DNA of 43,330 nucleotides from an uncultured Rhizobiaceae bacterium (GCA_964623955.1 CAZUVO010000005.1:1-43330), one strand, 5' to 3'; counted from the stretch's first letter, positions 17,681-36,051 are shown. Numbers and translations: made by a program. The notes: generated by a model from the letters alone, not told the origin.

Positions 17681-17729
17681 GAAGCTTCCGGCGACGAACC
17701 GTCGAAGACCAACTTAAATATAGGGGTAC

Positions 17730-17760: not shown

Positions 17761-17805
17761 AACAATAAATTCGGCCAGTTGTTACGTTTTCTTGAGGTTA
17801 AACAA

Positions 17806-18783
17806 ATGCCAAGAAGAATAATTGGATATTTAAAACTTAAGATATCCCAGAGTTCGTATAAATTTCTTACCGGATTGGCCCGCCAGCAAAAGATAAAAGC
17901 ATTGGCGCCTTCTTTCTTACGCAAGTTTGTTTCTAAACACATTGTCAAAAAAGTGGTCGATATTTACGATCGCGAGCGGCTGCTGCAACGGGTCGACGAG
18001 AAGACAATTTTGCTCGCCGATTACCCACGCTGCGGCATCGCATGGGTGCGTTTCACCATGGCGACGGTCTTGCATTACCGTACGAATAATGAATTCCGAA
18101 AATTGACGTTTCCGGAATTGGGAAGTTATTGTCCCACTATTCACAGCCATGGCGAGTTCGACCCTATTTATTTTAATGACGGGGTCAGCTTCATAAGGAC
18201 CCATTCGCACTATTATCCGGAATATCGCCGCGCGATCATGATTTATAGAGATCCGTTCGAGGCGATCAAATCGCTTCATACCCATGAAAGCTATACCCTT
18301 GACGATGTTGATTTTGAGCTGTCCTACGTGTCCAGGCGGGAGGGGCATGTGCTTTCGGGTGAAAAATATGAAGGCTTGTCGGAGGACGAATCATTTCTCG
18401 TCTATTGGAGCAACCAGTATGTGATTCATCATGAAACATGGATTACGGCAATTAACCCACGCCCGGACGATTTTCTGATTGTCAAATATGAGGATATGCT
18501 TGAGCGGTGCGCCGACCTACTGCCTGCCATGATTTCGTTTTCGGGGCTTGACCAGCCGCCTTTGACGCAAGATCAGATATCCACGCTTGCCGGCATGTAC
18601 ACCCGGCGCCACGCCAATTGGAGATCGGATGACGATATCGCCTATCGCGACAAGAATTTTCACCGGCTTGAGAACATCATGTGTCTCAGCGAATTGGAGC
18701 GATTAAATCAGGGCCTTGCACGCCGGATCGAGAATATTTTCGCGCAACTTGACGCGCTGCGCCATCGGCCGCGGCAGGGCTGA
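17806..18783 (+). CDS. Sulfotransferase-like protein, paralogue 1
   Basis: 5'-PSB-like loop 'YPRCGIAW' (cf. PKSGTTW). 3'-PB-like 'IRTHSH...IMIYRDPFEAIKSL' (cf. RNPxDxxxS). 'VKYEDMLERCADLLPAMISFSGL' (cf. YEDL....FLG). AT-rich codon usage. Confidence 0.6.
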   Translation: MPRRIIGYLKLKISQSSYKFLTGLARQQKIKALAPSFLRKFVSKHIVKKVVDIYDRERLLQRVDEKTILLADYPRCGIAWVRFTMATVLHYRTNNEFRKLTFPELGSYCPTIHSHGEFDPIYFNDGVSFIRTHSHYYPEYRRAIMIYRDPFEAIKSLHTHESYTLDDVDFELSYVSRREGHVLSGEKYEGLSEDESFLVYWSNQYVIHHETWITAINPRPDDFLIVKYEDMLERCADLLPAMISFSGLDQPPLTQDQISTLAGMYTRRHANWRSDDDIAYRDKNFHRLENIMCLSELERLNQGLARRIENIFAQLDALRHRPRQG

Positions 18784-18839
18784 CAATCGCGGAACCTATC
18801 GTATGGCAGTCGAAGCAACGTGAAAGCCCGGCAGGTAGA

Positions 18840-19841
18840 ATGATAAGGTTTCTCATACGCGGCATTACCAGGCGTCTCTATTTCCTCCTCATGAGGGCCG
18901 CCCATCAACAGAGGTTGAAGGCCGCGGCGCCCCGGTTTGTGCGCAAATTTATTTCGCGCATTGTCGTCAGGGCCGTCGTCGACACCTATGACCGCGAGCG
19001 GCGGCTGCAGCGGGTGGATGACGACACCATATTGCTGGCTGATTTTCGCCGCTGCGGCGTGGCGTGGTTGCGATTTGTCCTGACCACCGTGTTGCACTAT
19101 CGCGCCACGGGGGAATTCCGCAAACTTGCGCATCAGGAGTTGGAAAACTACTGCGCCACGATTCATGGCCACGAGAAGTTTTCCCCTTATTACTTCAACG
19201 ACGGCACTTCTTTTCTAAAAACCCATTCTCATTTTTATCCTGAATTCCGCCGGGCGATCATGATTTATCGTAACTCTTATGAGGCGATAAAATCGCTTTA
19301 TACCCAAGAGAGCTACACGCTAAACAATATTTCCCAAATGTATAATTTTGACCTGTTTCGCGGCACGGACCGCGAGAAAGTGCCGCTATCGGGTGACAAA
19401 TATGAAGGCCTTTCGGTGGATGAATCATTTCTGGTCTATTGGTCGGCGGAATATGTCAGGCATCACGAGACCTGGCTCGCGGCGATTCGAGAGCGTCCCG
19501 ACGATTTTCTCGTGTTCAAATATGAAGACATGCTCGACAATTGCGCGGCGCTTCTGCCGGCAATGATTTCCTTTGCAAAATTGGATGCGCCGCCTCTGAC
19601 CGGGGAGCAAATATCGGCGCTTGCCGGCATGTATACGAGAAAATACAGCAATTGGCCGAAGGACGAAGACTTGAGCTATCGCGACAATAAATTTTCCGAA
19701 CTTGAAAACGTTATCAGCCCGCGCGAATTAAACCGTCTCAACGCAGCACTTGCGCGGCGCATCGAAGAAATCCATGCCGAGCTCGACGATGTGCGGCAGC
19801 CGATAATGGCCTGTTCCCCGGCGATGACCGCGCAACATTGA
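18840..19841 (+). CDS. Sulfotransferase-like protein, paralogue 2 (tandem duplicate)
   Basis: Collinear with paralogue 1 over nearly the full length: 'FRRCGVAW', 'LKTHSH...IMIYRNSYEAIKSL', 'FKYEDMLDNCAALLPAMISFAKL'. By eye roughly 60% identical. Confidence 0.6.
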   Translation: MIRFLIRGITRRLYFLLMRAAHQQRLKAAAPRFVRKFISRIVVRAVVDTYDRERRLQRVDDDTILLADFRRCGVAWLRFVLTTVLHYRATGEFRKLAHQELENYCATIHGHEKFSPYYFNDGTSFLKTHSHFYPEFRRAIMIYRNSYEAIKSLYTQESYTLNNISQMYNFDLFRGTDREKVPLSGDKYEGLSVDESFLVYWSAEYVRHHETWLAAIRERPDDFLVFKYEDMLDNCAALLPAMISFAKLDAPPLTGEQISALAGMYTRKYSNWPKDEDLSYRDNKFSELENVISPRELNRLNAALARRIEEIHAELDDVRQPIMACSPAMTAQH

Positions 19842-19880
19842 TGGCCCAACGCAATCTCTGACGACTATCCCAGAATTCTC

Positions 19881-21185
19881 GTGCTGGCGCGCATGCCCTT
19901 CAACACGCAGGACGGCACGGGCATCGCCTTGAGTGCGCTCTTTCACGGCTGGCCGAAAGACCGCATCGCCCAACTCTGCGGCGAAGGTGCTATTGCCATG
20001 GCGGACAGAAACATCTGCGAAACCTATTACGGGCTGGGCGCGGCGGAGTTGCGCCGGGCCTGGCCGCTTAGACTGCGCGATGCCTTGCGCGGCAAGCCGG
20101 CGGCGGGCGCTCCCGGCGGCACGGCTCCCCCGGGCGGCGGCGCCGCTCAATCCGGACCGGCGGCGGCGTTCCGGCGCTATCTCCATGGGCGCGGCTGGCT
20201 CTATCCGGTCGATTCGCGCCTCAGTGCCGGCTTGCAGCGGTTTCTCAACGCGTTCTCGCCCGATCTGATCTATGCCGCGCCGGCGGAATTCGCCATGGTC
20301 CGCCTCACCCGGCAAATCGGCTGCCATCTCGGCGCGCCGGTCGCCGTGCAAGTATGGGACAATTGGATGAGCATGCATTACCGCAAGGGCGCCGGCGCCG
20401 CGGGTAAACGCCGCCGGCTCGACGCCGAGCTCCGCGCCCTCTTTGGCGAGGCGGCGCTCCGTTTCGGCATCAGCGAGCCCATGTGCGACGCTTATGGAAC
20501 GGCCTATGGCCAGCCCTTTCTGCCGCTTCCGGTCTCTGTCGATGTTGCCGAATGGCACCGCCAGTTCGCCGAGCGCGGCGCGCCGGGCGAGCCCTTCACC
20601 ATTCTCTATGCCGGAACGATTCACCAACACGCCGCCTATGCCGGCCTTGCGGATATGAGCCGCGCGGTGGAGGCGCTGAATGCGGCGGGCCTCGCGGCGC
20701 GCTTCAAGATCCTCGCCGCGTCCCCACCGCCTGCCGGGCAGATATCCGAGCTCGGCGGCCGGTTCACCGAATTCGCGACCGCCGCCGGCCGCACGGAACT
20801 TATCGCCGAGACCGGCGCCGCCGATCTTCTCTTTCTGCCGGTCGCGTTCGACGCCGAGAGCCGCGACCTCATCAAATATTCCCTGCCGGCGAAGAGCGCC
20901 GCCTATATGGCGAGCGGCACGCCGATACTGGTCTACGCCCCTGCCGACCTGCCGATCGCTATTGAGGCGGCACGCCACGGCATCGCCCATGCGGTTACCG
21001 AGCGGGATATCGGCCACCTGGCGGAAGGCGTGCGTCATATGCTGAGCGATCGAGCGGCGCGTGCCGCGGTCTCCGAAGCGGCGCTTCGCCGCGCCCGCGA
21101 GGCTTACGACCGGCCCGTGCTGCAGGAATGCACCCGCCGGCTCTTCGCGGACGCCATTTCGCACCAACAGGGCACCGGCGTCTGA
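19881..21185 (+). CDS. GT-B-fold glycosyltransferase-like protein
   Basis: The C-terminal half, 'FTILYAGTI...LLFLPVAFDAESRDLIKYSLPAKSAAYMASGTPILVYAP', resembles GT4-like donor-binding domains. GTG start. High GC. Confidence 0.5.
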   Translation: MLARMPFNTQDGTGIALSALFHGWPKDRIAQLCGEGAIAMADRNICETYYGLGAAELRRAWPLRLRDALRGKPAAGAPGGTAPPGGGAAQSGPAAAFRRYLHGRGWLYPVDSRLSAGLQRFLNAFSPDLIYAAPAEFAMVRLTRQIGCHLGAPVAVQVWDNWMSMHYRKGAGAAGKRRRLDAELRALFGEAALRFGISEPMCDAYGTAYGQPFLPLPVSVDVAEWHRQFAERGAPGEPFTILYAGTIHQHAAYAGLADMSRAVEALNAAGLAARFKILAASPPPAGQISELGGRFTEFATAAGRTELIAETGAADLLFLPVAFDAESRDLIKYSLPAKSAAYMASGTPILVYAPADLPIAIEAARHGIAHAVTERDIGHLAEGVRHMLSDRAARAAVSEAALRRAREAYDRPVLQECTRRLFADAISHQQGTGV

Positions 21186-22345: not shown

Positions 22346-23595
22346 AGGTCTGCGTTCTCGGCCTCGGCTATGTCGGCCTGCCGACCGGCGCGCTGCTCGC
22401 GGCCAAGGGCATGCGGGTCCATGGCGTCGATACCGATTCGGCGCTGACCGAGGCGATCAATGGCGGCACCTTCACTTCGGTCGAACCGGACCTCGACCTG
22501 CTGGTGAAATCCGCTGTCCGCGATGGCAATCTGGCGGCTTCCGGCGAGCCGGCGGCGGCGGATGTGTTCGTCCTCGCGGTGCCGACACCGGTACTGGCCG
22601 ACAGAAGCGGCGCCGATCTCTCGGCCATCGAAGCCGCCTGCAAGGCGCTCGCTGGTCATCTCGCGCCGGGCAATCTGATCATCCTCGAATCCACCGTGCC
22701 CATCGGCACGACGGAACGGATGGCGGCGTGGATCGGTGAATCCCGCCCCGATCTCACCTTCCGCGAGAGCGACGAGGGCGCAAATGACGGCAACCGTGTC
22801 TATCTCGCCCATTGTCCCGAGCGCGTGCTGCCCGGGCGGCTGATGCAGGAGCTGATCGAGAACGACCGCACGGTCGGCGGCATCGACCGGCCCTCCGCCG
22901 AGCGCGCGCGGGATTTCTACGCCGGCTTCGTGCAGGGCGCCATCGCCCTCAGCAATGCGCGCACGGCGGAGCTGTCGAAGCTGATCGAGAACGCCTATCG
23001 CGACGTCAATATCGCCTTCGCCAACGAGCTCTCCATGATCTGCGACGGGCTGGATATCGATGTCTGGGAAGTGATCGAGCTGGCCAATCAGCATCCACGG
23101 GTGAATGTGCTGACGCCGAGCGCCGGCGTCGGCGGCCATTGCATCGCCGTCGATCCCTGGTTCATCGTCGCCTCGGCGCCAGAGCAAGCCAATTTGATCC
23201 GCGCCGCGCGCGCGGTGAACGATGCCAAACCGGTCCATGTCGCGGCGCGGGTGCACGCGGCGCTGGCGGACCGGGAAGGCGCCACGATCGCCTGCCTCGG
23301 CATCGCCTTCAAACCGGATGTCGACGATCTCCGCGGCAGCCCGGCGCTGGAAATCGTCGCGAGCTTGGCGGCGGACGATGCTCTCACCGCGCTCGTCGTC
23401 GAGCCCCATGTCGAGGAATTGCCGCCTGGCCTGGCGGGTCTCGGCAATGTGGAATTGGTCGGGCTGGACGAAGCGCTCGGGCGGGCCGATGTTATCGCCC
23501 TTCTGGTTGGCCACCGGCCGTTTCGCGACATCGACCGCGCGCGCCTGGCGGAGAAGCCGGTCGTCGATTGCACGGGCGCATGGCGCGTTCCTTGA
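22342..23595 (+). CDS. wecC: UDP-N-acetyl-D-mannosamine dehydrogenase
   Basis: 'MKVCVLGLGYVGLPTGALLA', 'SKLIENAYRDVNIAFANEL', 'GVGGHCIAVDPWF', 'GIAFKPDVDDLRGSPA'. ATGA overlap with wecB. Confidence 0.9.
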   Translation: MKVCVLGLGYVGLPTGALLAAKGMRVHGVDTDSALTEAINGGTFTSVEPDLDLLVKSAVRDGNLAASGEPAAADVFVLAVPTPVLADRSGADLSAIEAACKALAGHLAPGNLIILESTVPIGTTERMAAWIGESRPDLTFRESDEGANDGNRVYLAHCPERVLPGRLMQELIENDRTVGGIDRPSAERARDFYAGFVQGAIALSNARTAELSKLIENAYRDVNIAFANELSMICDGLDIDVWEVIELANQHPRVNVLTPSAGVGGHCIAVDPWFIVASAPEQANLIRAARAVNDAKPVHVAARVHAALADREGATIACLGIAFKPDVDDLRGSPALEIVASLAADDALTALVVEPHVEELPPGLAGLGNVELVGLDEALGRADVIALLVGHRPFRDIDRARLAEKPVVDCTGAWRVP

Positions 23596-24302
23596 CGGAG
23601 GAGCCGGCGGTGTCTCCACCACGCTCGGTACAATCCTATTTCGACGGCGTCGCCGGGCGCTGGAGCGCTAATTACGCGCCGGGCGGCGTCATGCGGGCGC
23701 GAATCGAACGGTTCATCGATGCCTGCGCAAAGAGCGCCGCGCCCGATATGCGGGTGCTCGATTTCGGTTGCGGCAGCGGCGAGCTGGCCCGCGCCATGGC
23801 CGCGCGGGGCTGGCGCGTGACGGGCTGCGACATGTCGCGCGAAATGCTGCGCATCGCCGAGTCCGCGCCGGGCGGCGGTACGGTCGAGTGGCGCGCGGTT
23901 CAGCCGGCGGCGAAACTGCCCTTCGCCGATGATTCATTCGCCATCGCCACCGCCTCCAGCGTGTTCGAATATATTCCCCAGCCCGCGGCGTCGCTGAAAG
24001 AACTGCATCGGGTTTTGCTTCCCCAGGGGCGGATATTGCTGACGGTTCCGGATATGCGCCATGCCGTGCGCATCGCCGAGGAAAAAAACCGCCACAGCCT
24101 GCGCGGGCACATCATGCGCTGGGCGAGACGTGTTTGGGCGCGGGGAGAAGATATCGACTATCTGCCCTATTCGCTCTCTCGTCCCACGCCGGAGGGCTGG
24201 CTCGAGCTGCTGCGCGACTGCGCCTTCACTCCGGACCCGTTGCCGGATTGCAGCGACCCGCTCCTGCTCCTGGAGGCGGCCAAAAGCGACATGCGTCGCT
24301 AG
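23580..24302 (+). CDS. Class I SAM-dependent methyltransferase
   Basis: ATG 23580 within ORF 22812..24302. Motif I 'VLDFGCGSGELARAMAARGWRVTGCDMS', then 'LPFADDSFAIATASSVFEYI', 'LLPQGRILLTVP'. Confidence 0.8.
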   Translation: MARSLTEEPAVSPPRSVQSYFDGVAGRWSANYAPGGVMRARIERFIDACAKSAAPDMRVLDFGCGSGELARAMAARGWRVTGCDMSREMLRIAESAPGGGTVEWRAVQPAAKLPFADDSFAIATASSVFEYIPQPAASLKELHRVLLPQGRILLTVPDMRHAVRIAEEKNRHSLRGHIMRWARRVWARGEDIDYLPYSLSRPTPEGWLELLRDCAFTPDPLPDCSDPLLLLEAAKSDMRR

Positions 24303-24470: not shown

Positions 24471-25436
24471 ATGACAGAAGATAATTACGGCCTCCCGCCC
24501 GAGCGGCTCATCGCGCTCTATAGATCCGTCGTTCGGATTCGCCGGGTGGAAGAGGAAACCGCCAAAATCTATCCGAGCGATCTGGTCAAAAGCCCCATTC
24601 ATTTGTCGATCGGCCAGGAGGCGGTGTCCGTCGGCGTGTGCGATATTCTCGAGCCCGAGGATATCGCTTACGGGACCTATCGCGGGCACGCGCTTTATCT
24701 CGCCAAGGGCGGCGACCTGAAGGCGATGGTCGCGGAATTGTTCGGCCGTGAAACAGGCTGCGCCGGCGGCAAGGCGGGTTCCATGCACCTGGTCGATCCC
24801 GCCGCCAATGTGATGGGCATGTCGGCCATCGTCGCCACCCATATACCGCTCGCGGTGGGCCACGCCTTCGCCGTCAAGTCGAGGGGTCTGGCGGCGATCG
24901 TGGTTTGCTTTTTCGGCGAAGGCGCCGCCGACGAGGGCGCGTTTCACGAAGCGATGAATTTCGCCGCCCTGAAAAACCTGCCGCTGCTGTTCGTCTGCGA
25001 AAACAATCGGCTGGCCATCCATTCGCCGGCCGAGGACAGAATGGCGGGCCCGGGATTGGCGGCGCGGTTTTCATCCTACGGTGTCGCGGGGCGCAACATC
25101 GACGACGAGAACATTTTCTCGATCCGCGCCGCCGCCGAAGACCTGGTGGGTGAGATTCGCGGCGGCGGCGGCCCGCGCTATCTCGAATGCAGAACCTCCC
25201 GCTGGCGCGAGCATGTCGGCCCGGCGGAGGATTGGGATGCGGCTTACCGCGACGCGGCGGAAGAGCGCGCGCGGTCGGCCAAGGATCCGGTGGCGTTTCT
25301 CGCCGCGCTGTTGGATGCCGAGACGCGGGCGGCCCTGGACAGCGAAATCGCGGCGGAAATAAGCGAGGCCTTTAAATTGGCCGAGGCCGCGCCCTATCCG
25401 CCGGCGGACGCGTTGAACCATCATGTGTTCGGATAG
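24471..25436 (+). CDS. ThDP-dependent 2-oxoacid dehydrogenase E1 component, alpha subunit-like
   Basis: 'SPIHLSIGQEAVSVG', 'GKAGSMH', and the ThDP motif 'FFGEGAADEGAFHEAMNFAALKNLPLLFVCENN' (GEG in place of the usual GDG). Confidence 0.85.
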   Translation: MTEDNYGLPPERLIALYRSVVRIRRVEEETAKIYPSDLVKSPIHLSIGQEAVSVGVCDILEPEDIAYGTYRGHALYLAKGGDLKAMVAELFGRETGCAGGKAGSMHLVDPAANVMGMSAIVATHIPLAVGHAFAVKSRGLAAIVVCFFGEGAADEGAFHEAMNFAALKNLPLLFVCENNRLAIHSPAEDRMAGPGLAARFSSYGVAGRNIDDENIFSIRAAAEDLVGEIRGGGGPRYLECRTSRWREHVGPAEDWDAAYRDAAEERARSAKDPVAFLAALLDAETRAALDSEIAAEISEAFKLAEAAPYPPADALNHHVFG

Positions 25437-26487
25437 TTCCGCCGTGCGCGAGATCACCTACGGCCAAGCCCTGTTCGAGGCGACGCGCCAGGAAATGGCG
25501 CGCGACGATAGCGTCTTCGTGTTCGGCCAAGGGGTCGACGACCATAAGGGCCATTACGGCACCACGCTCAACCTGCACCGGGAATTCGGCGCCGAGCGCT
25601 GCTTCGACACGCCGCTCGCCGAGGACGCGATGACCGGCATGGCGGTGGGTGCCGCGCTTGCCGGCATGCGGCCGATCCATGTCCATCAGCGCATGGATTT
25701 CCTGCTGCTGTGCATGAACCAGCTCATCAATATGGCGGCGAAATTCTCCTATATGTTCAACGGAACCTACCGCGTGCCGCTGGTCGTCCGCGCCTCCATC
25801 GGGCGAAGCTGGGGGCAGGGGCCGCAGCATTCGCAGGCCCTGCATGCCATGTTCATGCATGTGCCCGGCTTGAAAGTCGTCGCGCCGACCACGGCGCATG
25901 ATGCCAAGGGCTGCCTCACAGCGGCGATCCGCGACAACAACCCGGTCGTCTTTATCGAGCATCGCATGCTCTATGGGCTGTCGGGTCATGTCGCGGAAGA
26001 GAGCTACGAAATCCCCTTCGGGCAGGCGCGCCGATTGACCGAGGGCGGTGATATCACCATCGTTGCGATCAGCCATATGGCGGTCGAGGCGCTGCGCGCG
26101 AGACACCATCTGCAATCCGTCGGAATATCCGCCGAAATCATCGATCCGGTCAGCCTCAGCCCGATCGATTGGGATACCATCCTGACGTCGGTGGAAAAGA
26201 CCGGGAGACTGCTGGTTGTCGACAATGGCTGGCTCAGTTGCGGCGCCTCGGCGGAAATCGTCGCGGAGACCGTCGAACGGCTGCAGGGCAGACGCGGCAT
26301 CACCGTCGGCCGGATGGGCTTTTCGCCATCGCCCTGCCCGACAACGCGGCCGCTTGAGCGCCTGTTTTATCCCAATGACCGGACCATCGCCGCGCGCGCC
26401 CACCGGCTGGTGAAGGGTGGCGACGAGTCCTGGATGCCGGCGGGCGGCGACTCCGCGGAAATCACGGAATTTCGCGGGCCGTTTTGA
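25423..26487 (+). CDS. ThDP-dependent 2-oxoacid dehydrogenase E1 component, beta subunit-like
   Basis: 'ITYGQALFEATRQEMARDDSVFVFGQGV', 'RCFDTPLAEDAMTGMAVGAALAGMRPI', 'PGLKVVAPTTAHDAKG'. 14-nt overlap with the alpha subunit. Confidence 0.85.
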   Translation: MCSDSSAVREITYGQALFEATRQEMARDDSVFVFGQGVDDHKGHYGTTLNLHREFGAERCFDTPLAEDAMTGMAVGAALAGMRPIHVHQRMDFLLLCMNQLINMAAKFSYMFNGTYRVPLVVRASIGRSWGQGPQHSQALHAMFMHVPGLKVVAPTTAHDAKGCLTAAIRDNNPVVFIEHRMLYGLSGHVAEESYEIPFGQARRLTEGGDITIVAISHMAVEALRARHHLQSVGISAEIIDPVSLSPIDWDTILTSVEKTGRLLVVDNGWLSCGASAEIVAETVERLQGRRGITVGRMGFSPSPCPTTRPLERLFYPNDRTIAARAHRLVKGGDESWMPAGGDSAEITEFRGPF

Positions 26488-26523: not shown

Positions 26524-27816
26524 TTGTCTTCAGACAGGAAATCGGACGACGCCCGGGCGGCGGCGCGGGACGCGCTGCGCGGCGCCATCGAACGGGGCTG
26601 GCGGCTCGAGAAGGAAAAGTTGGCCGCGGCGCGCGGCAAGCGGTTCAAGCTGCATGAGCCGACCTTCGGGGTCGATGAAATACTCGCCGCCGTCGATTGC
26701 ATGCTGACCTCCTACGTGACGATGGGAAAGCGCGTCGCGCAATTGGAGCGAATGTTCGCCGAGGTGATCGGCGTGCCGGAGGGCATCTCCTGCAATTCCG
26801 GCTCGTCGGCCAATTTGTTGGCGATCGGCGCCTTGGCGAACGGTCACACCAAGGACGGCTTGCGCCCGGGCGACGAGGTCATCGTGCCGGCGCTGGCCTG
26901 GTCGACGACGATCTGGCCGCTGGTGCAGCACGGGCTCGTGCCGGTCATCGTCGATATCGATCCGCTGACCTTGAACATCGATCCGAACGAGGCGGCGCGG
27001 GCGGTGAGCGACAAGACCCGCGCGATTCTGCCGGTGCATGTCTATGGCAATCCGTGCGACATGGATGCGCTGCAAGCCCTATGCGACCGCCACGATTTGA
27101 TCCTCATCGAAGATGTCTGCGAGGCCATGGGCGGAAGTTATAAAGGCCGGGCGCTTGGCCAGTTCGGACGGGTGTCGACCTTCAGCTTCTATTTCTCCCA
27201 TCACATCACCACCTTCGAAGGCGGCATGTGCCTGACCGGCGACGATGCGCTCGGCGATACGATGCGGATCCTGCGCTCCCATGGCTGGATTCGGGAGGCC
27301 AAGGACCAAGCGCGTTACACCGAACGCCATCCCGGCATCGATCCGCGCTTTCTCTTCGTCAATACCGGTTACAATTTGCGTTTGACGGAAGTCCAGGCGG
27401 CGGTCGGCCTCGAGCAGGTGCCGAAGCTGGACGGATTTCTGGCGCAGCGGCGGGAGGCCGCCGCCCTCTGGGAAGGCGTCTTCGCCGCCCATTGCGAGAC
27501 CCTGCAAACCCAGCGCGAGACGCCGGGCGGCGGCCATGCCTGGTTCGGCTTCCCGGTGACGGTCAAGCCCGGCGCGCCCTATTCCTGCGCGGCGGTCAGA
27601 AAGCATTTGGATGATTCCGGGGTCGAGACCCGGCCGATCATATGCGGCAATATCGCGCTACAGCCGGGCCTGCATGATTACGATTTTCGCACGGTGGGCG
27701 ATCTGGCCGCCGCCACCAACGTCATGCAAAACAGCTTTTCGATCGGCAATCATCATGCGGTCGGCGGCGAAGATGTGGACTGGGTGCGCGATCTGCTCAA
27801 TACCCTGCCGCACTGA
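26524..27816 (+). CDS. PLP-dependent nucleotide-sugar 3-dehydratase of the DegT/DnrJ/EryC1 superfamily (ColD/RfbH-E1 type)
   Basis: 'GKRVAQLERMFAEVIGVPEGISCNSGSSANLLAI', 'ILPVHVYGNPCDMD'. The active-site segment 'STFSFYFSHHITTFEGG' has His (codon 27199-27201) where aminotransferases carry the Schiff-base Lys. TTG start, uncertain. Confidence 0.75.
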   Translation: MSSDRKSDDARAAARDALRGAIERGWRLEKEKLAAARGKRFKLHEPTFGVDEILAAVDCMLTSYVTMGKRVAQLERMFAEVIGVPEGISCNSGSSANLLAIGALANGHTKDGLRPGDEVIVPALAWSTTIWPLVQHGLVPVIVDIDPLTLNIDPNEAARAVSDKTRAILPVHVYGNPCDMDALQALCDRHDLILIEDVCEAMGGSYKGRALGQFGRVSTFSFYFSHHITTFEGGMCLTGDDALGDTMRILRSHGWIREAKDQARYTERHPGIDPRFLFVNTGYNLRLTEVQAAVGLEQVPKLDGFLAQRREAAALWEGVFAAHCETLQTQRETPGGGHAWFGFPVTVKPGAPYSCAAVRKHLDDSGVETRPIICGNIALQPGLHDYDFRTVGDLAAATNVMQNSFSIGNHHAVGGEDVDWVRDLLNTLPH

Positions 27817-27845: not shown

Positions 27846-28562
27846 TTATTCAAGAACGAATTTCTGGGCCGCTTGGTAATCTTCCGGCACGCCGATATCG
27901 AGGAATCGTCCGTCTTGGCGATGGCCATAAAGGCCCTTGCCGATCAGGGAGGGGAAAATTTCAGTTTCAAGGGAAAGCGGGCGATGAGGCGGAAATCCGT
28001 CGAGCAGGTTTCGGCGAAGCAAATATACGCCGGCATTGATCCAATCGCTCGACCGGCTGCCTTTTTCGTCGAACCTGGTGACCCGGCCGGCATCGTCCGT
28101 CGTGACGCCGCCATAGCGCTCGGCCTCGGGAAACGGCGCCAGGGCGAGACAGGCGCGGAGGTCTTTTTTGCCGGCGCTCCAATCGAGAAAGGCCGGCAAA
28201 TCAAGATCGAACAAAGTATCGCCGTTCATCGCCAAGGCGAATTCGGAATGCCACTGGGCGGCGCTGAGGGCAAGCGCGCCGGCGGTGCCGAGCGATCGGT
28301 CCTCGCGCGAATAACCGATCGCGATCTCTTCGAACTCGCCGCCGATGGTTTGCCGGATCTCCTCTGCGCCATGGCCGGTGCAACAGATCGCCCGGCGAAT
28401 GCCCGCTTTGTTCAACCGGGCGAGCAAATGATGCAGAAACGGCCGGCCGGCGACCGGCACGATCGCCTTCGGCGTATCGCCCGTCGCCGCGCGCAAGCGG
28501 GTGCCGAGCCCGCCGGCGAGAATGACGGCGGGCAGCTCGGATGGAGGCGGTAATCTCGTCAT
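27846..28562 (-). CDS. hddC: Sugar-1-phosphate nucleotidylyltransferase (D-glycero-D-manno-heptose-1-P guanylyltransferase-like)
   Basis: ATG at 28562 within ORF 27846..28718. 'AVILAGGLGTRLRAATGDTPKAIVPVAGRPFLHHLL', 'LGTAGAL'. The symbol rests on context (an HddA-like kinase in the same module). Confidence 0.65.
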   Translation of the reverse strand: MTRLPPPSELPAVILAGGLGTRLRAATGDTPKAIVPVAGRPFLHHLLARLNKAGIRRAICCTGHGAEEIRQTIGGEFEEIAIGYSREDRSLGTAGALALSAAQWHSEFALAMNGDTLFDLDLPAFLDWSAGKKDLRACLALAPFPEAERYGGVTTDDAGRVTRFDEKGSRSSDWINAGVYLLRRNLLDGFPPHRPLSLETEIFPSLIGKGLYGHRQDGRFLDIGVPEDYQAAQKFVLE

Positions 28563-28686: not shown

Positions 28687-29649
28687 ATGAAGATACTGAT
28701 TACCGGCGTCACCGGCATGGTTGGAAGCCACCTCGCCGACTATGTTCTCGCCAATCACCCCGATGTCGAAATCCACGCCTCGGTTCGCTGGCGCAGCCCG
28801 CGCGACAATATCGGCGATATCCTGGATCAGATTCATTTACACGCCGCCGATTTGCACGATCTCGGTTCGCTGATCCGGCTCATGCGGGATTTGCAGCCCG
28901 CCCGCATCTTCCATTTGGCGGCGCAATCCTATGTCGTCGACAGCTTCTCCCTGCCCGCCGATACGATCCATATCAACACCATCGGCACGACCAATTTGCT
29001 CGAGGCGGTGCGCCTGTCGGAAGTGGATCCCTTGATCCACATCTGTTCATCCTCCGAGGTGTACGGCCAGGTGCGCGAGGACGAAGTGCCGATCCGGGAG
29101 GACAATCCCTTCCGCCCGGCGAGCCCCTACGCGGTATCGAAGGTCGGCGAGGATATGATCGCGCTGCAATATTTTCTGTCCTACGGTATCCGCACGATCC
29201 GCACGCGCATGTTCACCCATACCGGGCCGCGCCGCGGCGATGTGTTCGCGGAAAGCGCCTTCGCCCGGCAGATCGCCAGGATCGAGGCGGGGTTGACCGA
29301 GGACAATGTCGTGCGGGTGGGAAATCTCGACAGCATCCGGACCTTTGCCGATGTGCGCGATGCGGTGCGCGCCTATTGGCTGTTGCTGGAAAAATGCGAA
29401 CCCGGCGAGGTCTACAATATCGGCGGCGACCGGACGGCAACCATCGGCGAGATGTTGGAAATCCTGAAATCGCGGGCGAATTGCGAGATCCGTCATGAAG
29501 TGTCGGAGGATTTGCTCCGGCCGTCGGACGTGACCCTGCAGATTCCCGATACCGGCAAATTCCGCGGCGCGACCGGCTGGCAATCCGAAGTGCCGCTCGA
29601 GCAAACCATGGAAGATTTGTTGAACTACCACCGGGCCAGGCTCGCCTGA
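28687..29649 (+). CDS. GDP-mannose 4,6-dehydratase-family SDR (Gmd/Rmd/heptose 4,6-dehydratase-like)
   Basis: ATG 28687 within ORF 28501..29649. 'MKILITGVTGMVGSHLADYVL', 'IFHLAAQSYV', 'SSSEVYG', catalytic 'YAVSKVGEDM'. Confidence 0.75.
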   Translation: MKILITGVTGMVGSHLADYVLANHPDVEIHASVRWRSPRDNIGDILDQIHLHAADLHDLGSLIRLMRDLQPARIFHLAAQSYVVDSFSLPADTIHINTIGTTNLLEAVRLSEVDPLIHICSSSEVYGQVREDEVPIREDNPFRPASPYAVSKVGEDMIALQYFLSYGIRTIRTRMFTHTGPRRGDVFAESAFARQIARIEAGLTEDNVVRVGNLDSIRTFADVRDAVRAYWLLLEKCEPGEVYNIGGDRTATIGEMLEILKSRANCEIRHEVSEDLLRPSDVTLQIPDTGKFRGATGWQSEVPLEQTMEDLLNYHRARLA

Positions 29650-29663: not shown

Positions 29664-30683
29664 ATGACAGCAACAGAAGATTTTTTTCACGACAAAACCG
29701 TACTGGTCACCGGCGGCACCGGGCTGATCGGCCAGCCCCTGGTGAGTTTGCTGGTCGCGGCGGGCGCTAAGGTGAAGGTGGTGTCGCTCGACCCGCCGTC
29801 CCGCGCGCCTGAGGGCGCCGAATTCGTTCGCGCCGATCTCCGCGATCTGGCGGCCTGCGAAAAGGTCTGCGCCGGTAGCGATCTCGTGTTTCATCTCGCC
29901 GGCGTCAAGGGCTCTCCCGCGGTCACCGCGACGCGCCCGGCGACGTTTTTCGTCCCCACCCTCATGTTCAGCATCAATATGATGGAGGCCGCGCGCCGCG
30001 CCGGCGTCGCGCGCTATCTCTTCGCCAGCAGTGTCGGCGTCTATGCGCCGGCGGCGTTGTTTCGCGAGGACGATGTCTGGCAGACCTTCCCGTCCGACAA
30101 TGACAAATTCGCCGGCTGGGCCAAACGCATGGGCGAGCTGCAGGCCGAGGCCTATAGGATCGAATATGACTGGGACAAGATTTCCATCGTCCGCCCGGCC
30201 AATGTCTACGGGCCCTATGACAATTTCGACGATGAAAATGCGATGGTCATCCCGTCGCTCATCCGCCGCGCGCTATCCGGCGAAAATCCGATGGCGATCT
30301 GGGGCGACGGCTCGCCGATCCGGGATTTTATTTTTGCCGAGGATGTCGCCCGCGGCATGATGCTGATGATGGCCAAGGGCGTCTCCGAGCCGGTGAATTT
30401 GGGCAGCGGCCGGCCGGTTTCGATCCGCGAATTGGTGGAGGTCATTCTGGCTTGTCTCGACGATGCGCCCGACGTCGCCTGGGATGCCTCGAAACCGAGC
30501 GGCGATAAAGAGCGCCTGATGTGCATGGAACGGGCGGGCAGCTATGGCTTCGAGCCGCGGGTCTCGCTCGCCGACGGAATCGCCCGGACGATCGCCTGGT
30601 ACCGCCAACACAAAGCCGTGCCGGACAAGGGCTATAACGCCTTTACAGATCCGGCGCTGACCCCGGACCGCGCGGGATCGTGA
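29664..30683 (+). CDS. NAD-dependent epimerase/reductase, GDP-L-fucose-synthase-like (paralogue 1)
   Basis: 'VLVTGGTGLIGQPL', 'FASSVGVYAP', 'FAGWAKRMGELQ', 'IVRPANVYGPYDNFDDENAMVIPSLI' (cf. Fcl 'NLYGPxDNF...SHVIPAL'). Confidence 0.7.
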   Translation: MTATEDFFHDKTVLVTGGTGLIGQPLVSLLVAAGAKVKVVSLDPPSRAPEGAEFVRADLRDLAACEKVCAGSDLVFHLAGVKGSPAVTATRPATFFVPTLMFSINMMEAARRAGVARYLFASSVGVYAPAALFREDDVWQTFPSDNDKFAGWAKRMGELQAEAYRIEYDWDKISIVRPANVYGPYDNFDDENAMVIPSLIRRALSGENPMAIWGDGSPIRDFIFAEDVARGMMLMMAKGVSEPVNLGSGRPVSIRELVEVILACLDDAPDVAWDASKPSGDKERLMCMERAGSYGFEPRVSLADGIARTIAWYRQHKAVPDKGYNAFTDPALTPDRAGS

Positions 30684-31426
30684 GCCGGATGCAACGCGCA
30701 GCGATCGTCACCGGCGCGAGCCGCGGCATCGGCGCGGCGGTTGCAACGGTCTTGGCGGGCCAAGGCTATGCGGTCTGCGTCAACTATCTGCGCGACACGG
30801 AAGCCGCCGACCGGGTGGTCGCGGATATCGCCGGCGCCGGCGGCACCGCGCGGGCGGTCCAGGCGGATATCGCCGAACCGGACCAAATCGCCCGCCTGTT
30901 CCGGAGCGTGGACGAAATGGACGCGCCGCTCGGCGCGCTGGTGAACAATGCCGGGTTTAGCGGCGGGCGAAAGAAATTCACCGATCTCGGGGTCGAGGAT
31001 TTCAATGCGGCGCTCGGGGTGCATTTGATCGGCCCGGCCCTCTGCACCCAGGAAGCGGTCAAACGCATGGCGACGAGCCAAGGTGGAAACGGCGGCGCGA
31101 TCGTCAATGTGACATCGCAGGCGGCGGTGACCGGCGGCCGGCGGCTTCTGCCCTATGCGGCGGCGAAGGCGGGCCTCGCCGTCATGACCCTGGCCCTGGC
31201 GCATGAGCTCGCGGCCGAGGGTATTCGGGTCAACGGCGTCAGCCCGGGCGTGATCGAAACCGATTTGGCGTCCGCCGATCACGCGGACCGCGACGCAATC
31301 GAAAAAACCATCGCCCTCGGGCGCCTCGGCCAACCGCGGGAAGTCGCCGATACGGTGGCCTGGCTATTGTCCGACAAGGCGTCCTATGTGACCGGCATTA
31401 CCGTCCCGGTCACCGGCGGGCGTTGA
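30680..31426 (+). CDS. Classical SDR oxidoreductase (FabG-like ketoreductase)
   Basis: 'AAIVTGASRGIGAAVA', 'LVNNAG', 'NVTSQAA', 'YAAAKAGL', 'RVNGVSPGVIETD'. Confidence 0.8.
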   Translation: MSRMQRAAIVTGASRGIGAAVATVLAGQGYAVCVNYLRDTEAADRVVADIAGAGGTARAVQADIAEPDQIARLFRSVDEMDAPLGALVNNAGFSGGRKKFTDLGVEDFNAALGVHLIGPALCTQEAVKRMATSQGGNGGAIVNVTSQAAVTGGRRLLPYAAAKAGLAVMTLALAHELAAEGIRVNGVSPGVIETDLASADHADRDAIEKTIALGRLGQPREVADTVAWLLSDKASYVTGITVPVTGGR

Positions 31427-32406
31427 TTGAGGAGCGCGCGCAACCCGTGAGCGAACGCAAAACACTCATCATCTGCGGCGCGACCGGATTTATCGGGCGC
31501 AATCTGGTCGAGGCCTATGCCGGCGATCCGGCATTTCGCGTCATCGCCGTGTGGCATCTGGAGCCGCCCTTCGACATGGACGGCGTCGAATGGCGGCAAG
31601 CGGATTTGACGGATGCCGCGGATGTCGCGGATTGTCTCGCCGGCGTCGATATCGTCCTTCAGGCGGCGGCGACGACCTCCGGGTCCAAAGACATCGTTTC
31701 CCGGCCGCATATTCATGTCACCGACAATGCGGTGATGAATTCGCTGCTGCTGCGCGCTGTGCACGATCTGGGTGTGGCGCACTTCGTGTTTTTCAGTTGC
31801 ACGGTCATGTATCAAAGTTCCGAGACACCGCTCGGCGAATCCGATTTCGACGAATCGGTGCCGCTCCATCCCAATTATTTCGGCGTCGGCTGGACCAAGG
31901 TTTATGTCGAAAAGATGTGTGAGTTTTATTCCCGCCAGGGAGAGACGAAATTCACCATTATCCGCCATTCCAATATTTACGGGCCGCACGACAAGTTCGA
32001 CCTGGAAAAATCGCATGTCTTCGGCGCGACCATGACCAAGGTCTGCACCGCGTCGGACGGCAAGGTGAGCGTGTGGGGGACCGGCGAGGAATCGCGCGAC
32101 CTGCTCTATGTCGGCGATTTGGTGGATTTCGTGCGCCGCGCGGTCGCCGGTCAGGCCGTACAATACGGGCTATACAATTGCGGCGCCGGGCAGGCGGTGA
32201 CGATCCGCCGCCTCGTCGAAATGATCGTGGCCGCGGAAAATCCCGGCCTTGCCATCGAACATGACCTCTCCAAGCCGACCATCAAGACGTCTCTGTCGCT
32301 GGACTGTACCAAGGCAAGCGACGAGCTGGGCTGGCGGCCGCAAATATCGCTCGCCGAGGGGATTGGTGAAACCCTTCGCTGGTGGCATGCTCACATTGGA
32401 ACCTAA
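31423..32406 (+). CDS. NAD-dependent epimerase/reductase, GDP-L-fucose-synthase-like (paralogue 2)
   Basis: 'LIICGATGFIGRNL', 'FFSCTVMY', 'GWTKVYVEKM', 'IIRHSNIYGPHDKFDLEKSHVFGA'. TTG 31423 or GTG 31447 start. Confidence 0.7.
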   Translation: MIEERAQPVSERKTLIICGATGFIGRNLVEAYAGDPAFRVIAVWHLEPPFDMDGVEWRQADLTDAADVADCLAGVDIVLQAAATTSGSKDIVSRPHIHVTDNAVMNSLLLRAVHDLGVAHFVFFSCTVMYQSSETPLGESDFDESVPLHPNYFGVGWTKVYVEKMCEFYSRQGETKFTIIRHSNIYGPHDKFDLEKSHVFGATMTKVCTASDGKVSVWGTGEESRDLLYVGDLVDFVRRAVAGQAVQYGLYNCGAGQAVTIRRLVEMIVAAENPGLAIEHDLSKPTIKTSLSLDCTKASDELGWRPQISLAEGIGETLRWWHAHIGT

Positions 32407-32468: not shown

Positions 32469-33572
32469 ATGAGCTTCGACGCAGTTCTCACGACAACGAT
32501 CCATGTCCCGACTTTTTTCGAAGGCGTTTGTGCGAACGCTCGCGACCATGGGCATGAAAATATCAGATTTTATGTCATCGGCGATCATAAGACGCCCGCC
32601 GGGGCCGGCGAGTTCTGTGCCTCGATGGAGAAGAAGTTCGGGCTTGAGTTTCAATATTACGACGTGCCCCAACAGGTCGCGGTCGTCGAGAAAATCCCCG
32701 GCGCCGAGCGAATCCTTCCCTACAATTGGGGCGGGCGCAAAATGCTCGCCAACATTCTCGCCTATCGCGACGGCGCCGAACGCCTGATCATGCTGGACGA
32801 CGATAATTTCATGACCGGCTCGGACTTTTTCGGCGGGTACGGCGCGGTGGGGCGCGAGAGCGAGTTGAATTTGGTGTCTTCGGAAAGCGGCTGGTTCAAT
32901 ATCTACCGTGGCGTGGTCGAGGAGAAAGCGCTGCCGATTTACCCGCGCGGCTATCCCTGGAGCAAGCGGTTCGGCGCGGACGAGGATTGGCGGATGAAGC
33001 CGGCGCGCGGCACCGTCGCCGCGCTCAACGGATTCGTTTTGGGAGACCCGGATATCGACGCCATCACCCGCTTGTTTTCGCCGATTCGGGTTCAGGCCAT
33101 GGCAGCGGAATTCGCCCCCGGATTTGCCCTCGCGCCCGGGACCTGGTCGTCCTGGAACAATCAGAACACGGCGCTCTCGCGCGCCGCCGCGCCGGCCTAT
33201 TTCACGCCGCCGGCGGCCGGGCGGAATTCCGATATATGGGCGGCCTTCGTCATCTGCAAACTCTCCGCCCATTTTGATGAACTGGTGGCATTCGGCGAGC
33301 CGCTGGTCGAGCAGGTGCGAAATCCACATAATCTGTGGCGCGACCTTGAGGACGAACTGCCCAACAACAAGGCCAACGAGTATTTTCTCGATATTCTACG
33401 CACGGCGGAACTGAGCGGCGAAGATTACCTGGCGGCTCTCGCTTCCCTGATCGAGCACGCTCTCGCCGGCACCGAGGCGGGCGGCAACATGCCCGACAAT
33501 GCGCGACGCGAGATCGCCGGATTTTTTGAGGAATACCAAATCTGGCACGGCATTATGGCCGCGCTCTCATGA
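32469..33572 (+). CDS. Reversibly-glycosylated-polypeptide / UDP-arabinopyranose-mutase-like (GT75-like) protein
   Basis: Collinear matches to plant RGP/UAM as I remember it: 'LIMLDDDNF' (cf. IFTIDDDCF), 'IYPRGYPWSKR' (cf. DFVRGYPFSLR), 'NGFVLGDPDIDAITRL' (cf. HGLWLNIPDYDAPTQL), 'RNSDIWAAFVICKL' (cf. RYDDMWAGWCVKVI). Confidence 0.55.
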   Translation: MSFDAVLTTTIHVPTFFEGVCANARDHGHENIRFYVIGDHKTPAGAGEFCASMEKKFGLEFQYYDVPQQVAVVEKIPGAERILPYNWGGRKMLANILAYRDGAERLIMLDDDNFMTGSDFFGGYGAVGRESELNLVSSESGWFNIYRGVVEEKALPIYPRGYPWSKRFGADEDWRMKPARGTVAALNGFVLGDPDIDAITRLFSPIRVQAMAAEFAPGFALAPGTWSSWNNQNTALSRAAAPAYFTPPAAGRNSDIWAAFVICKLSAHFDELVAFGEPLVEQVRNPHNLWRDLEDELPNNKANEYFLDILRTAELSGEDYLAALASLIEHALAGTEAGGNMPDNARREIAGFFEEYQIWHGIMAALS

Positions 33573-34561
33573 TCATCAGCCGGACCCCGTTTCGTATTTC
33601 CTTCTTCGGCGGCGGCACGGATTATCCGCAATGGTACCGCGAGCATGGCGGCTCGGTCATCAACACGACGATCAATAAATATTCCTTCATCACGGCCCGC
33701 CTGCTGCCGCCCTTCTTCGACTACCGCTACCGCATTCGTTATTACGAAACCGAGGAAATTTCCGCCGTCGAGGAAATCCGCCATCCCTCCGCGCGGGAAT
33801 GCCTCAAGCTCTGTGACTTTGGCGACGGCCTGGAGATCGTGCACCATGCCGACCTGCCGGCGCGCTCGGGCCTCGGCTCGAGCTCGACCTTCACGGTCGG
33901 ACTGCTGAACGCGCTGGCCGGTCTCGACAACCAGATGATGAGCAAGAAGGAGCTTGCGCTGCGCGCCATTCATGTCGAGCAGGATCTGATCGGCGAGGCG
34001 GTTGGGTCGCAGGATCAGACCGCCGCTGCGTTCGGCGGCTTCAACCGAATCGATTTTCGCGCCGAGCATGACATCACCGTGACGCCGATCTTGATGTCGC
34101 CCGAGCGCCGGCAGGAGCTGGAAGACCATCTGATGCTGATATTCACCGGTTTCGCCCGCAACGCGCCCGAAATTGCCGCAAATCAGATAAACGAGATGAA
34201 GAACAAGCAAACCGAGCACGCCGCGATCCAGACCTTGACCGAGGAGGCGTTCCGGCTGTTTGCCGCCGACGGCTGGAGCGTCGCGGAATTTGGCCGGCTG
34301 TTGCATGAGCAGTGGATGATCAAACGGGGAATCACCTCGCAAATCGCCAATGAATTCATCGACGAAATTTATCAGGCGGGGCGAAGCGCGGGTGCGATGG
34401 GCGGCAAACTGCTCGGCGCCGGCGGAGGCGGGTTCATGGCCTTCGTCGCCAAGCCCGAGGATCAGGCGAACATACGGCAGAAACTGGAAAAGCTGCTATA
34501 TGTGCCATTCCGCTTCGAAAGCTCGGGCAGCCAGATCGTTTACTATGCGAACCATGCGTGA
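33569..34561 (+). CDS. hddA: GHMP-family sugar kinase (D-glycero-D-manno-heptose-7-phosphate kinase-like)
   Basis: 'MIISRTPFRISFFGGGTDYPQWYREHGGSVINTTINKYSFI', GHMP motif 'DLPARSGLGSSSTFTVGLL', 'GGKLLGAGGGGFMAF'. Confidence 0.75.
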   Translation: MIISRTPFRISFFGGGTDYPQWYREHGGSVINTTINKYSFITARLLPPFFDYRYRIRYYETEEISAVEEIRHPSARECLKLCDFGDGLEIVHHADLPARSGLGSSSTFTVGLLNALAGLDNQMMSKKELALRAIHVEQDLIGEAVGSQDQTAAAFGGFNRIDFRAEHDITVTPILMSPERRQELEDHLMLIFTGFARNAPEIAANQINEMKNKQTEHAAIQTLTEEAFRLFAADGWSVAEFGRLLHEQWMIKRGITSQIANEFIDEIYQAGRSAGAMGGKLLGAGGGGFMAFVAKPEDQANIRQKLEKLLYVPFRFESSGSQIVYYANHA

Positions 34562-36001: not shown

Positions 36002-36051
36002 CTCGACCGTACCATGGCTATCTGTCGCATAACCTGAAGAGAATCCGTTCC

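Follow-up and report, generated by a model that had tools for sequence, protein, structure and literature searches.

Why would the E1 component of a 2-oxoacid dehydrogenase be encoded, unaccompanied by its usual partners, among the genes of nucleotide-sugar metabolism? The question is raised by a stretch of 43,330 nucleotides (further referred to as the window) from an uncultured Rhizobiaceae bacterium (GCA_964623955.1, CAZUVO010000005.1:1-43330), in which two overlapping genes for E1 alpha- and E1 beta-like proteins (E1a and E1b; together E1ab) lie within a glycan biosynthesis locus. Judging by analogy with known sugar-branching enzymes, we consider it probable (about 0.6) that E1ab is a thiamine diphosphate (ThDP)-dependent enzyme of the alpha2beta2 E1 fold, which acts independently of lipoyl acyltransferase (E2) and dihydrolipoamide dehydrogenase (E3) and adds an acyl branch at C4 in the course of guanosine diphosphate (GDP)-heptose tailoring. 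The pair is encoded as follows:

24471..25436, plus strand: E1 alpha-like ThDP subunit, 321 aa, ATG start (Pfam E1_dh, 9.2e-52)
25423..26487, plus strand: E1 beta-like subunit, 354 aa, ATG start (Pfam Transket_pyr, 2.1e-37, and Transketolase_C, 7.8e-26)

The two open reading frames (ORFs) overlap by 14 nt and lie exactly where an earlier note on this DNA had placed two overlapping coding sequences with E1 alpha and E1 beta signatures. The nearest structures in the PDB are the human pyruvate dehydrogenase (PDH) E1a for E1a (1e-46, about one-third identity by eye) and the Geobacillus stearothermophilus E1b for E1b (1e-63). Alignment to PDH E1 demonstrated that the catalytic His is kept in both the alpha ('REHVGP') and the beta subunit (QHS), and that the activating Glu of the beta subunit resides in the DTPLAE segment. 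The Mg/ThDP motif of E1a reads GEGAADEG...CENN (G-E-G...E-N-N), with G-E-G at residues 149-151 (window positions 24915-24923). By its domain set and its cofactor and active-site motifs the pair belongs to the heterotetrameric 2-oxoacid dehydrogenase E1 superfamily. Compared with their orthologues from a metagenomic contig of 167 kb (L007; amino acid identity 81% for E1a, 91% for E1b and 87% for the DegT-family protein encoded next to them), the dN/dS values were 0.13, 0.06 and 0.08, respectively, and these low values indicate that E1a, E1b and DegT are real genes under purifying selection. A promoter and terminator scan around the operon gave no promoter-like sites, and terminator-like sites did not exceed the chance level.

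A housekeeping role of the pair finds little support in the window itself. Against the NCBIfam curated equivalog and subfamily cut-offs, both subunits fell short: E1a scored 275.6 bits with TIGR03182 (PDH E1 alpha; cut-off 393.85), and E1b scored 289.1 bits with PRK09212 (cut-off 321). Pfam scans of 38 coding-like long ORFs of the 43-kb window detected none of the domains Biotin_lipoyl, 2-oxoacid_dh, E3_binding and Pyr_redox_2, and no E2 was detected in it by tblastn with two bona fide E2 queries. The single-chain TPP_enzyme_N/_M/_C architecture characteristic of YerE was likewise absent from all window ORFs scanned, the ThDP proteins of the window being the E1ab pair and a split transketolase. 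The PGAP label of the beta subunit from related loci on plasmids of Azospirillum lipoferum, S. magneticus and A. oryzae is merely 'transketolase C-terminal domain-containing protein'. The signatures of the two genes and the lack of E2 and E3 in the 43 kb are as claimed in the earlier note, and the profile comparison with PDH that it suggested came out in favour of its interpretation.

Relatives of the pair are numerous and occur in a remarkably constant setting. A search among 5.8 billion proteins returned very many of them, the best 120 sharing 53-100% identity, and the named relatives among these best 120 came mostly from alphaproteobacterial metagenome-assembled genomes (MAGs). A genome scan restricted to one genome per species yielded 80 loci at 45-58% identity. 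The Alphaproteobacteria among them include the cultured Azospirillum doebereinerae, A. halopraeferens, A. cavernae and Niveispirillum lacus, and the other taxa comprise Planctomycetota, Cyanobacteria, Myxococcota, Nitrospirota, Chloroflexota, Acidobacteriota, Verrucomicrobiota, Poribacteria and Rickettsiales; altogether, relatives at 43-58% identity were found in more than 80 genomes of many phyla. The gene order in them is almost always kinase, short-chain dehydrogenase/reductase (SDR), E1a, E1b, DegT. Neighbourhoods were counted by tblastn with the window proteins. Where at least 3 kb downstream of E1a was available (64 loci), E1b was present in 62 and a DegT protein with His in place of the catalytic Lys in 57; where at least 6 kb was available on both sides (42 loci), the counts were 41 for E1b, 38 for DegT, 31 for the kinase (46-54% identity) and 24 for the nucleotidyltransferase. 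Every DegT protein of usable length encoded directly 3' of E1b carries His at the Lys position, within the motif (S/A/G)-H-H-(I/L/M/V) or A-H-x-I; additional DegT paralogues that clearly retain Lys were seen in L030, L035 and L065. With the same two E2 queries, E2 was found in 0 of the 80 loci, and no E3-like gene was among their recurrent neighbours. As far as gene neighbourhoods can tell, comparative genomics thus show an obligate linkage of E1ab with the His-type dehydratase as well as with heptose-activation genes, and the co-occurrence of the pair with this dehydratase, suggested for survey at the outset, turned out to be the rule. We are almost certain that the pair is a dedicated sugar-pathway enzyme and no component of a dehydrogenase complex.

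The remaining neighbour ORFs of the 80 loci, called with GC3 weighting, were clustered, and representatives were scanned against Pfam. Among the recurrent families were extended SDRs (40 loci), cobalamin (B12)-binding radical S-adenosylmethionine (SAM) proteins (33), GmhA-like SIS proteins (17), GmhB-like haloacid dehalogenase (HAD) phosphatases (11) and aldo/keto reductases (AKRs; 7); glycosyltransferases of families GT1, GT2 and GT41 and Wzm/Wzt transporters also recur beside the cassette. Pau7, which reduces the acetyl branch of paulomycose, is an AKR (PMC4753412). Two variants of the cassette can be distinguished. The window-like variant A (8 loci) encodes a ColD-like protein of at least 50% identity, a heptose-type 4,6-dehydratase, two GDP-fucose-synthase-like SDRs and a classical SDR, while the commoner variant B (53 loci) possesses a different SDR and a radical-SAM enzyme. 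The latter, a B12-binding protein some 510 aa long (L039:13776-15311 and another 32 loci), frequently occurs together with a NUDIX hydrolase; a B12 radical-SAM protein was seen also in L009, L093 and L094, and it lies outside the window's own cassette. The variant-B enzyme may C-methylate or rearrange the branched sugar.

Plasmid-borne relatives from PLSDB at 43-52% identity were all sugar-linked (A. lipoferum 4B, S. magneticus RS-1 pDMC1 and A. oryzae). On the A. lipoferum 4B plasmid AZO_p6 (L091, 31485-60417), the SDR-E1a-E1b-His-DegT order is combined with an NTP-transferase::HAD fusion and surrounded by GT41/TPR proteins, sulfotransferases and WavE, and the A. oryzae locus encodes an HldE-like kinase and a SIS protein. 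A. lipoferum 4B is thus a cultured, genetically tractable model strain carrying the cassette. Matches at 38-41% identity, from Ralstonia wenshanensis and A. brasilense, were E2-linked, the E2 gene following the E1 genes. Gene context thus changes with identity: the homologues linked to E2 do not exceed 41% identity, and the closer ones, save for a Streptomyces pair described below, are sugar-linked.

A further peculiarity of the clade is the C-terminus of its beta subunit. E1b of the window carries an extension of about 28 aa ending in ...EFRGPF (window positions 26400-26487), and a tail of this kind relative to canonical E1 beta, terminating in F-[KR]-G-P-F-COOH, was found in 59/59 full-length beta subunits of the clade. 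A. lipoferum and A. oryzae possess it, Streptomyces griseofuscus has the variant form FAGPY, and neither of the two E2-linked beta subunits examined carries it, nor does the sugar-linked beta subunit of S. magneticus. When 1.84 billion representatives were searched exhaustively with HMMER, the G-P-[FY] ending was seen in 57 of the best 150 proteins, fused alpha-beta proteins included. In the G. stearothermophilus E1, the beta C-terminus is located at the E2-docking site, which makes an altered docking surface a reasonable hypothesis. The tail correlates with E2-independent contexts in this small sample and could mark E2-independent E1 enzymes. One sugar locus of a Planctomycetia MAG (L012:8149-11977) encodes two E1 alpha/beta pairs side by side, namely a member of the clade (at 55% and 62% identity, GPF tail present) and a divergent pair (34% and 29%, no tail).

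Which sugar would be the substrate can be judged from the adjacent genes. The window is a GC-rich (0.60-0.69) glycan biosynthesis locus with two low-GC islands (0.40-0.57), and the genes relevant here are the following:

23580..24302, plus strand: class I SAM-dependent methyltransferase (Pfam Methyltransf_23/11/25, 1e-19 to 1e-21)
26524..27816, plus strand: ColD-type pyridoxal/pyridoxamine phosphate (PLP/PMP)-dependent nucleoside diphosphate (NDP)-4-keto-6-deoxy-sugar C3-dehydratase of the DegT family (ColD 2gms, 6.2e-74; motif SHHI)
27846..28562, minus strand: HddC-like sugar-1-phosphate (probably heptose-1-phosphate) guanylyltransferase (Pfam NTP_transferase; PDB 6jq8, 1.5e-31)
28687..29649, plus strand: SDR similar to GDP-D-glycero-D-manno-heptose 4,6-dehydratase (PDB 7us5, 3e-79)
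29664..30683, plus strand: GDP-L-fucose-synthase-like extended SDR, epimerase/reductase (Pfam Epimerase, 2e-51; PDB GDP-L-fucose synthase, 6e-31)
30680..31426, plus strand: classical SDR, FabG-like (Pfam adh_short_C2, 7.6e-54)
31423..32406, plus strand: second GDP-L-fucose-synthase-like extended SDR (Pfam Epimerase, 5e-40; NCBIfam GDPFucSynFcl 123.8 bits, below 500)
32469..33572, plus strand: conserved protein of 367 aa with an LDDDN motif and no assigned function (no Pfam or NCBIfam match; also in L007 and L008)
33569..34561, plus strand: HddA-like GHMP sugar kinase, similar to D-glycero-D-manno-heptose 7-phosphate kinase (Pfam GHMP_kinases_N/_C)

These Pfam and PDB matches agree with the SAM methyltransferase, sugar 3-dehydratase and GDP-sugar tailoring genes that had been noticed around the pair. 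The 4,6-dehydratase is closer to GDP-D-glycero-D-manno-heptose 4,6-dehydratase (7us5) than to GDP-mannose 4,6-dehydratase (1db3, 8e-43); the nearest structures to the GHMP kinase are the heptose kinases 3k85, 4n3o and 4usk (1e-35 to 1e-40), and that to the nucleotidyltransferase is 6jq8, an HddC-type '6-deoxy-D-mannoheptose pathway protein', the top NCBIfam matches of the same protein being mannose-1-phosphate guanylyltransferase and HddC. Since the top PDB matches of all three are heptose-specific, the nucleotide sugar is most likely GDP-D-glycero-D-manno-heptose rather than a hexose. In the DegT protein, S-H-H-I aligns to S-H188-H-I of ColD, i.e., with His at the position of the Schiff-base Lys, and the ColD H188N and H188K mutant entries in the PDB make the catalytic position in the alignment unambiguous. 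This protein scored 252.6 bits with ColD versus 237 with the iron-sulfur (Fe-S) E1 dehydrase, and its 323.6 bits with NCBIfam RfbH fell below the cut-off of 423. The slightly higher ColD score, together with the absence of an E3-type reductase gene, makes a ColD-like, reductase-independent mechanism slightly preferable. A role of DegT as an aminotransferase acting on the acetyl branch, as in kibdelomycin biosynthesis, was considered and rejected: all the E1b-adjacent DegT proteins examined lack the Lys and have the ColD His. On these grounds, the acceptor is likely to be GDP-3,6-dideoxy-4-keto-heptose, a compound experimentally proven as an intermediate in Campylobacter jejuni (PMC10440746).

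The pathway that we propose would begin with activation of the heptose to GDP-heptose, GmhA and GmhB being encoded outside the window. The 4,6-dehydratase would then convert it to GDP-6-deoxy-4-keto-D-lyxo-heptose, from which the ColD-type His-dehydratase would strip the C3 hydroxyl to give GDP-3,6-dideoxy-4-keto-D-threo-heptose. At this point E1ab would decarboxylate pyruvate to hydroxyethylidene-ThDP and add the carbanion to the C4 ketone, forming a tertiary alcohol with a 4-C-acetyl branch; finally, the three adjacent SDRs and the upstream methyltransferase would carry out reduction, epimerisation or methylation prior to glycosyl transfer. Support for the predicted activation, 4,6-dehydration and C3-dehydration comes from homology to enzymes characterised biochemically, while branching and tailoring are inferred by analogy with YerE/YerF and the actinomycete E1ab branchers. 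The classical SDR (30680..31426), whose orthologues in L013, L017, L020 and L031 are 43-51% identical, is a candidate acetyl-branch ketoreductase by the parallel with YerF and Pau7. The two extended SDRs have orthologues in variant-A loci that are 60-67% (29664..30683) and 58-65% (31423..32406) identical. The start of the methyltransferase gene (23580) was taken from the gene call in an identical contig (L001); a methyltransferase is also encoded directly upstream of E1a in L007 and L008, and it is probably responsible for O- or C-methylation of the sugar. The earlier note had regarded the pair as a stand-alone enzyme installing a two-carbon branch on a keto-sugar. The gene context and the lack of E2 speak for this; carboligation and pyruvate as the donor would follow by analogy with AviB1/B2, AlmDI/DII and KbDH, and the sugar is more likely a GDP-heptose derivative than a hexose.

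Several observations weigh against the proposed scheme. The consensus ThDP/Mg2+ motif of the E1 superfamily is G-D-G-X(24-27)-N-N, with near-universal GDG, and in the window E1a the Mg-binding Asp of this motif is replaced by Glu. The same GDG to GEG change is common to the closest relatives of the window protein and to a second sub-clade (P0050, P0058, P0103), and its recurrence in a conserved sub-clade suggests that it is tolerated rather than inactivating. All the heptose-enzyme scores are below the NCBIfam equivalog cut-offs (for instance, the kinase reaches 144 bits with HddA at a cut-off of 600), and neither GmhA (SIS isomerase) nor GmhB (HAD phosphatase) is encoded in the window. On the S. 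griseofuscus plasmid pSGRIFU1 (L092:14007-16053), an E1ab pair that shares about 50% identity across 76% of E1a belongs to a polyketide synthase/nonribosomal peptide synthetase (PKS/NRPS)-like cluster, where it adjoins a condensation-domain protein, acyl carrier proteins (ACPs) and ketosynthases, with no sugar genes nearby; this exception implies that identity alone does not fix the reaction and that related stand-alone E1 pairs serve other pathways. Finally, the donor substrate and the regiochemistry are not readable from sequence.

Other explanations were weighed as well. The pair might be the E1 of a catabolic or housekeeping 2-oxoacid or acetoin dehydrogenase that resides in the glycan locus by chance and is served by E2 and E3 encoded elsewhere, as its full-length likeness to PDH E1 alpha and beta, whose structures are the nearest solved ones, and the preserved active-site His residues of reductive acylation would suggest. 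However, both subunits remain below the PDH equivalog cut-offs, the synteny with sugar genes is kept across phyla and always without E2, the E2-linked homologues are at most 41% identical and devoid of the beta tail, and the automatic label of the clade beta subunit refers to a transketolase domain only; we regard such a housekeeping function as highly improbable. E1ab could also take part in the pathway with no branching involved, by decarboxylating a 2-oxo acid so as to provide an aldehyde or acyl group for O-/N-acylation or acetal formation, or by supplying reductant to the PMP-dehydratase instead of an E3-type reductase. In certain natural-product pathways, carrier proteins receive C2 units from E1-like pairs, and the PKS/NRPS-like context of the S. 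griseofuscus pair fits such a delivery; in addition, RfbH/E1-type dehydratases require a reductase partner, and none is encoded in the window. Still, neither an ACP nor an acyltransferase nor an Fe-S/flavin reductase is a recurrent neighbour of the pair in the 80 loci, and DegT is, as mentioned, slightly closer to the reductase-free ColD than to the Fe-S enzyme, so that a non-branching role appears very unlikely.

The other two alternatives retain a branching reaction and concern its order and its donor. If the order were swapped, E1ab would branch GDP-6-deoxy-4-keto-heptose first, with the C3 hydroxyl kept, and ketimine formation by DegT on the acetyl carbonyl would be followed by loss of the tertiary C4 hydroxyl, yielding a 4-C-acetyl-4,6-dideoxy sugar. 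The E1a-E1b-DegT gene order of nearly all loci is in line with such a sequence of events, the ColD mechanism, in which the hydroxyl next to the ketimine carbon is eliminated, is chemically analogous (PMC10440746), and the C4-branched sugar of R. palustris keeps its C3 oxygen (PMC9912281). Nevertheless, gene order does not indicate reaction order, every characterised His-type DegT enzyme (ColD, E1/DdhC and that of C. jejuni HS:5) is a C3-dehydratase acting on ring 4-keto sugars (PMC10440746), and YerE-type branching takes a 3-deoxy-4-keto acceptor (PMC9306805); we consider the swapped order quite unlikely. An unlikely possibility, too, is that E1ab is a ThDP carboligase whose donor is not pyruvate, in which case the branch would not be a simple C2 unit; candidate donors are the 2-oxoglutarate that the ColD half-reaction releases, hydroxypyruvate, a 2-oxo acid that is longer and hydroxylated, or a ketose, transferred in the manner of transketolase. 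This would agree with the ability of the YerE homologues ErwE and MyGE to take C4-C8 2-oxo acids (PMC9306805) and with the stoichiometric formation of 2-oxoglutarate by ColD-type enzymes (PMC10440746), but all the described E1ab-type (alphaKADH2) branchers yield C2 branches from pyruvate (PMC12247030), and no aldolase or other 2-oxo-acid-forming gene is recurrent in the 80 loci.

Taken together, the comparisons favour C4-acyl branching of a GDP-3,6-dideoxy-4-keto-heptose by E1ab. The broader picture, in which the clade represents a cross-phylum, so far unrecognised route to C4-acyl-branched 3,6-dideoxy-heptoses, with radical-SAM elaboration of the product and with the GPF tail as a signature of E2 independence, is put forward tentatively, as we rate it slightly short of even chances. 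Having nine carbons, a C4-acyl-branched 3,6-dideoxy-heptose would constitute a sugar class undescribed in any glycan, and in most loci the variant-B radical-SAM enzyme would elaborate the branched product further. Branched-chain sugars are rare, immunodominant determinants on bacterial surfaces. If the proposal is true, a second enzyme family, besides that of YerE, branches surface-glycan sugars in many phyla, and a new sugar class is to be expected in the glycans of Azospirillum and marine Alphaproteobacteria; hundreds of genes labelled 'pyruvate/acetoin dehydrogenase E1' or 'transketolase C-terminal domain-containing protein' are then mis-assigned, and further biocatalysts become available for asymmetric synthesis of tertiary alcohols. 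The heptose scaffold is already enzymatically accessible via the C. jejuni enzymes, which renders the hypothesis directly testable. A relation to bradyrhizose or to the C4-branched sugar of R. palustris (C7 + C2 + C1 = C10) was set aside as speculation only, the papers giving no gene-level detail. A possible occurrence of E1ab-like genes in the O-antigen region of Coxiella burnetii was dropped as unverified, two papers on Coxiella lipopolysaccharide being silent about them.

As to the rest of the window, WecB and WecC genes lie, along with the methyltransferase gene, upstream of the E1ab pair, the guanylyltransferase gene is convergent with the E1ab-DegT operon, the gene of the 367-aa LDDDN protein sits between those of the SDRs and the heptose-kinase-like protein, and a glycosyltransferase gene comes after the GHMP kinase gene. 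The split transketolase is a second orphan ThDP pair (Transketolase_N at 1286-2116; Transket_pyr and Transketolase_C at 2116-3069). Its neighbours (220-9759) include a TIGR04324 'sporadic carbohydrate cluster 2OG-Fe(II) oxygenase' (312 bits at a cut-off of 150), a methyltransferase, an RmlD-like reductase, a WbuC cupin, NeuB, a NeuC-like epimerase and a CMP-transferase, and the region may encode a transketolase-modified nonulosonic-acid pathway. One of the low-GC islands (16000-20000) encodes a 530-aa protein without assignment and two sulfotransferases; the other (36000-42300) encodes a Wzy/Wzx-like protein with about 10 transmembrane segments (37198-38559) and a KedN5-family B12 radical-SAM C-methyltransferase (40130-42253). 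Both islands look like serotype-specific genes gained laterally.

Among known systems, the pair resembles the alpha2beta2 E1 of the PDH, branched-chain and acetoin dehydrogenases in its fold, ThDP-Mg motif, activating Glu of the beta subunit and active-site His, and differs from it in scores below the family cut-offs, in lacking E2/E3 and in the extra F-[KR]-G-P-F beta tail. Its predicted role follows the logic of yersiniose A biosynthesis by YerE/YerF, i.e., an NDP-sugar, a 4,6-dehydratase, a His-type PMP-dependent C3-dehydratase, ThDP-dependent addition at C4 and ketoreduction, and YerE adds an acyl anion to the C4 ketone of the cytidine diphosphate (CDP)-hexose analogue of the same 3,6-dideoxy-4-keto acceptor (PMC9306805). 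Branched sugars in the lipopolysaccharides of Gram-negative bacteria are attributed in the literature to enzymes of the YerE type. However, YerE is a single-chain, FAD-binding protein of the acetolactate synthase/decarboxylase fold acting on a CDP-hexose, while the window enzyme is a heteromeric E1ab with GDP-heptose as its presumed scaffold; it thus shares the proposed chemistry of YerE, has a different fold and stands outside the YerE family. In C. jejuni HS:5/HS:11, a heptose 4,6-dehydratase followed by a ColD-like PLP-dependent C3-dehydratase produces GDP-3,6-dideoxy-4-keto-D-threo-heptose (Ghosh, Xiang & Raushel 2023; PMC10440746). The dehydratase, kinase and guanylyltransferase of the window match that enzyme set best; the C. 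jejuni 4-keto intermediate, though, is only epimerised and reduced, with no ThDP enzyme involved, whereas in the window E1ab is encoded directly upstream of the C3-dehydratase.

A survey of branching enzymes dependent on ThDP (Angew. Chem. 2024, e202403535) reportedly covers about 120 gene clusters with such enzymes and may already include clusters of the present kind. In the literature covered here, to which that survey does not belong, the statement of the earlier note that no E1ab-type brancher has been characterised in Gram-negative glycans is borne out (PMC4753412, PMC12247030): E1ab branchers are listed for secondary metabolites only (PMC12247030), and branching in Gram-negative bacteria is ascribed to the single-chain YerE, 'unlike gram positive bacteria' (PMC4753412). 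An AKR-E1a-E1b block stands uninterpreted in a table of the Crocosphaera watsonii exopolysaccharide cluster (PMC3247675). The closest counterparts are the alphaKADH2-type branchers of actinomycete antibiotic biosynthesis, AviB1/AviB2 (avilamycin), AlmDI/DII (aldgamycin), Pau11/Pau12 (paulomycin) and KbDH-alpha/beta (kibdelomycin) (PMC12247030, PMC4753412), which are proposed, and in the case of KbDH shown in vitro, to transfer acetyl from pyruvate onto an NDP-keto-sugar to give a tertiary alcohol; KbDH-alpha/beta was assayed in vitro with sugar-like ketones (PMC12247030). Matched to them by architecture and gene context alone, the window pair likewise has a two-subunit E1 fold, employs ThDP, lacks E2/E3 and is situated among deoxysugar genes. 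In contrast to the alphaKADH2 enzymes of secondary-metabolite clusters, it belongs to a polysaccharide/glycan locus and to a clade present in many phyla, and it is coupled to a ColD-type C3-dehydratase and GDP-heptose activation genes, by which the acceptor would be a 3,6-dideoxy-4-keto-heptose. The ColD coupling, the GDP-heptose scaffold, the wide phyletic spread and the beta-tail signature are thus the features that set it apart from the known E1ab cases.

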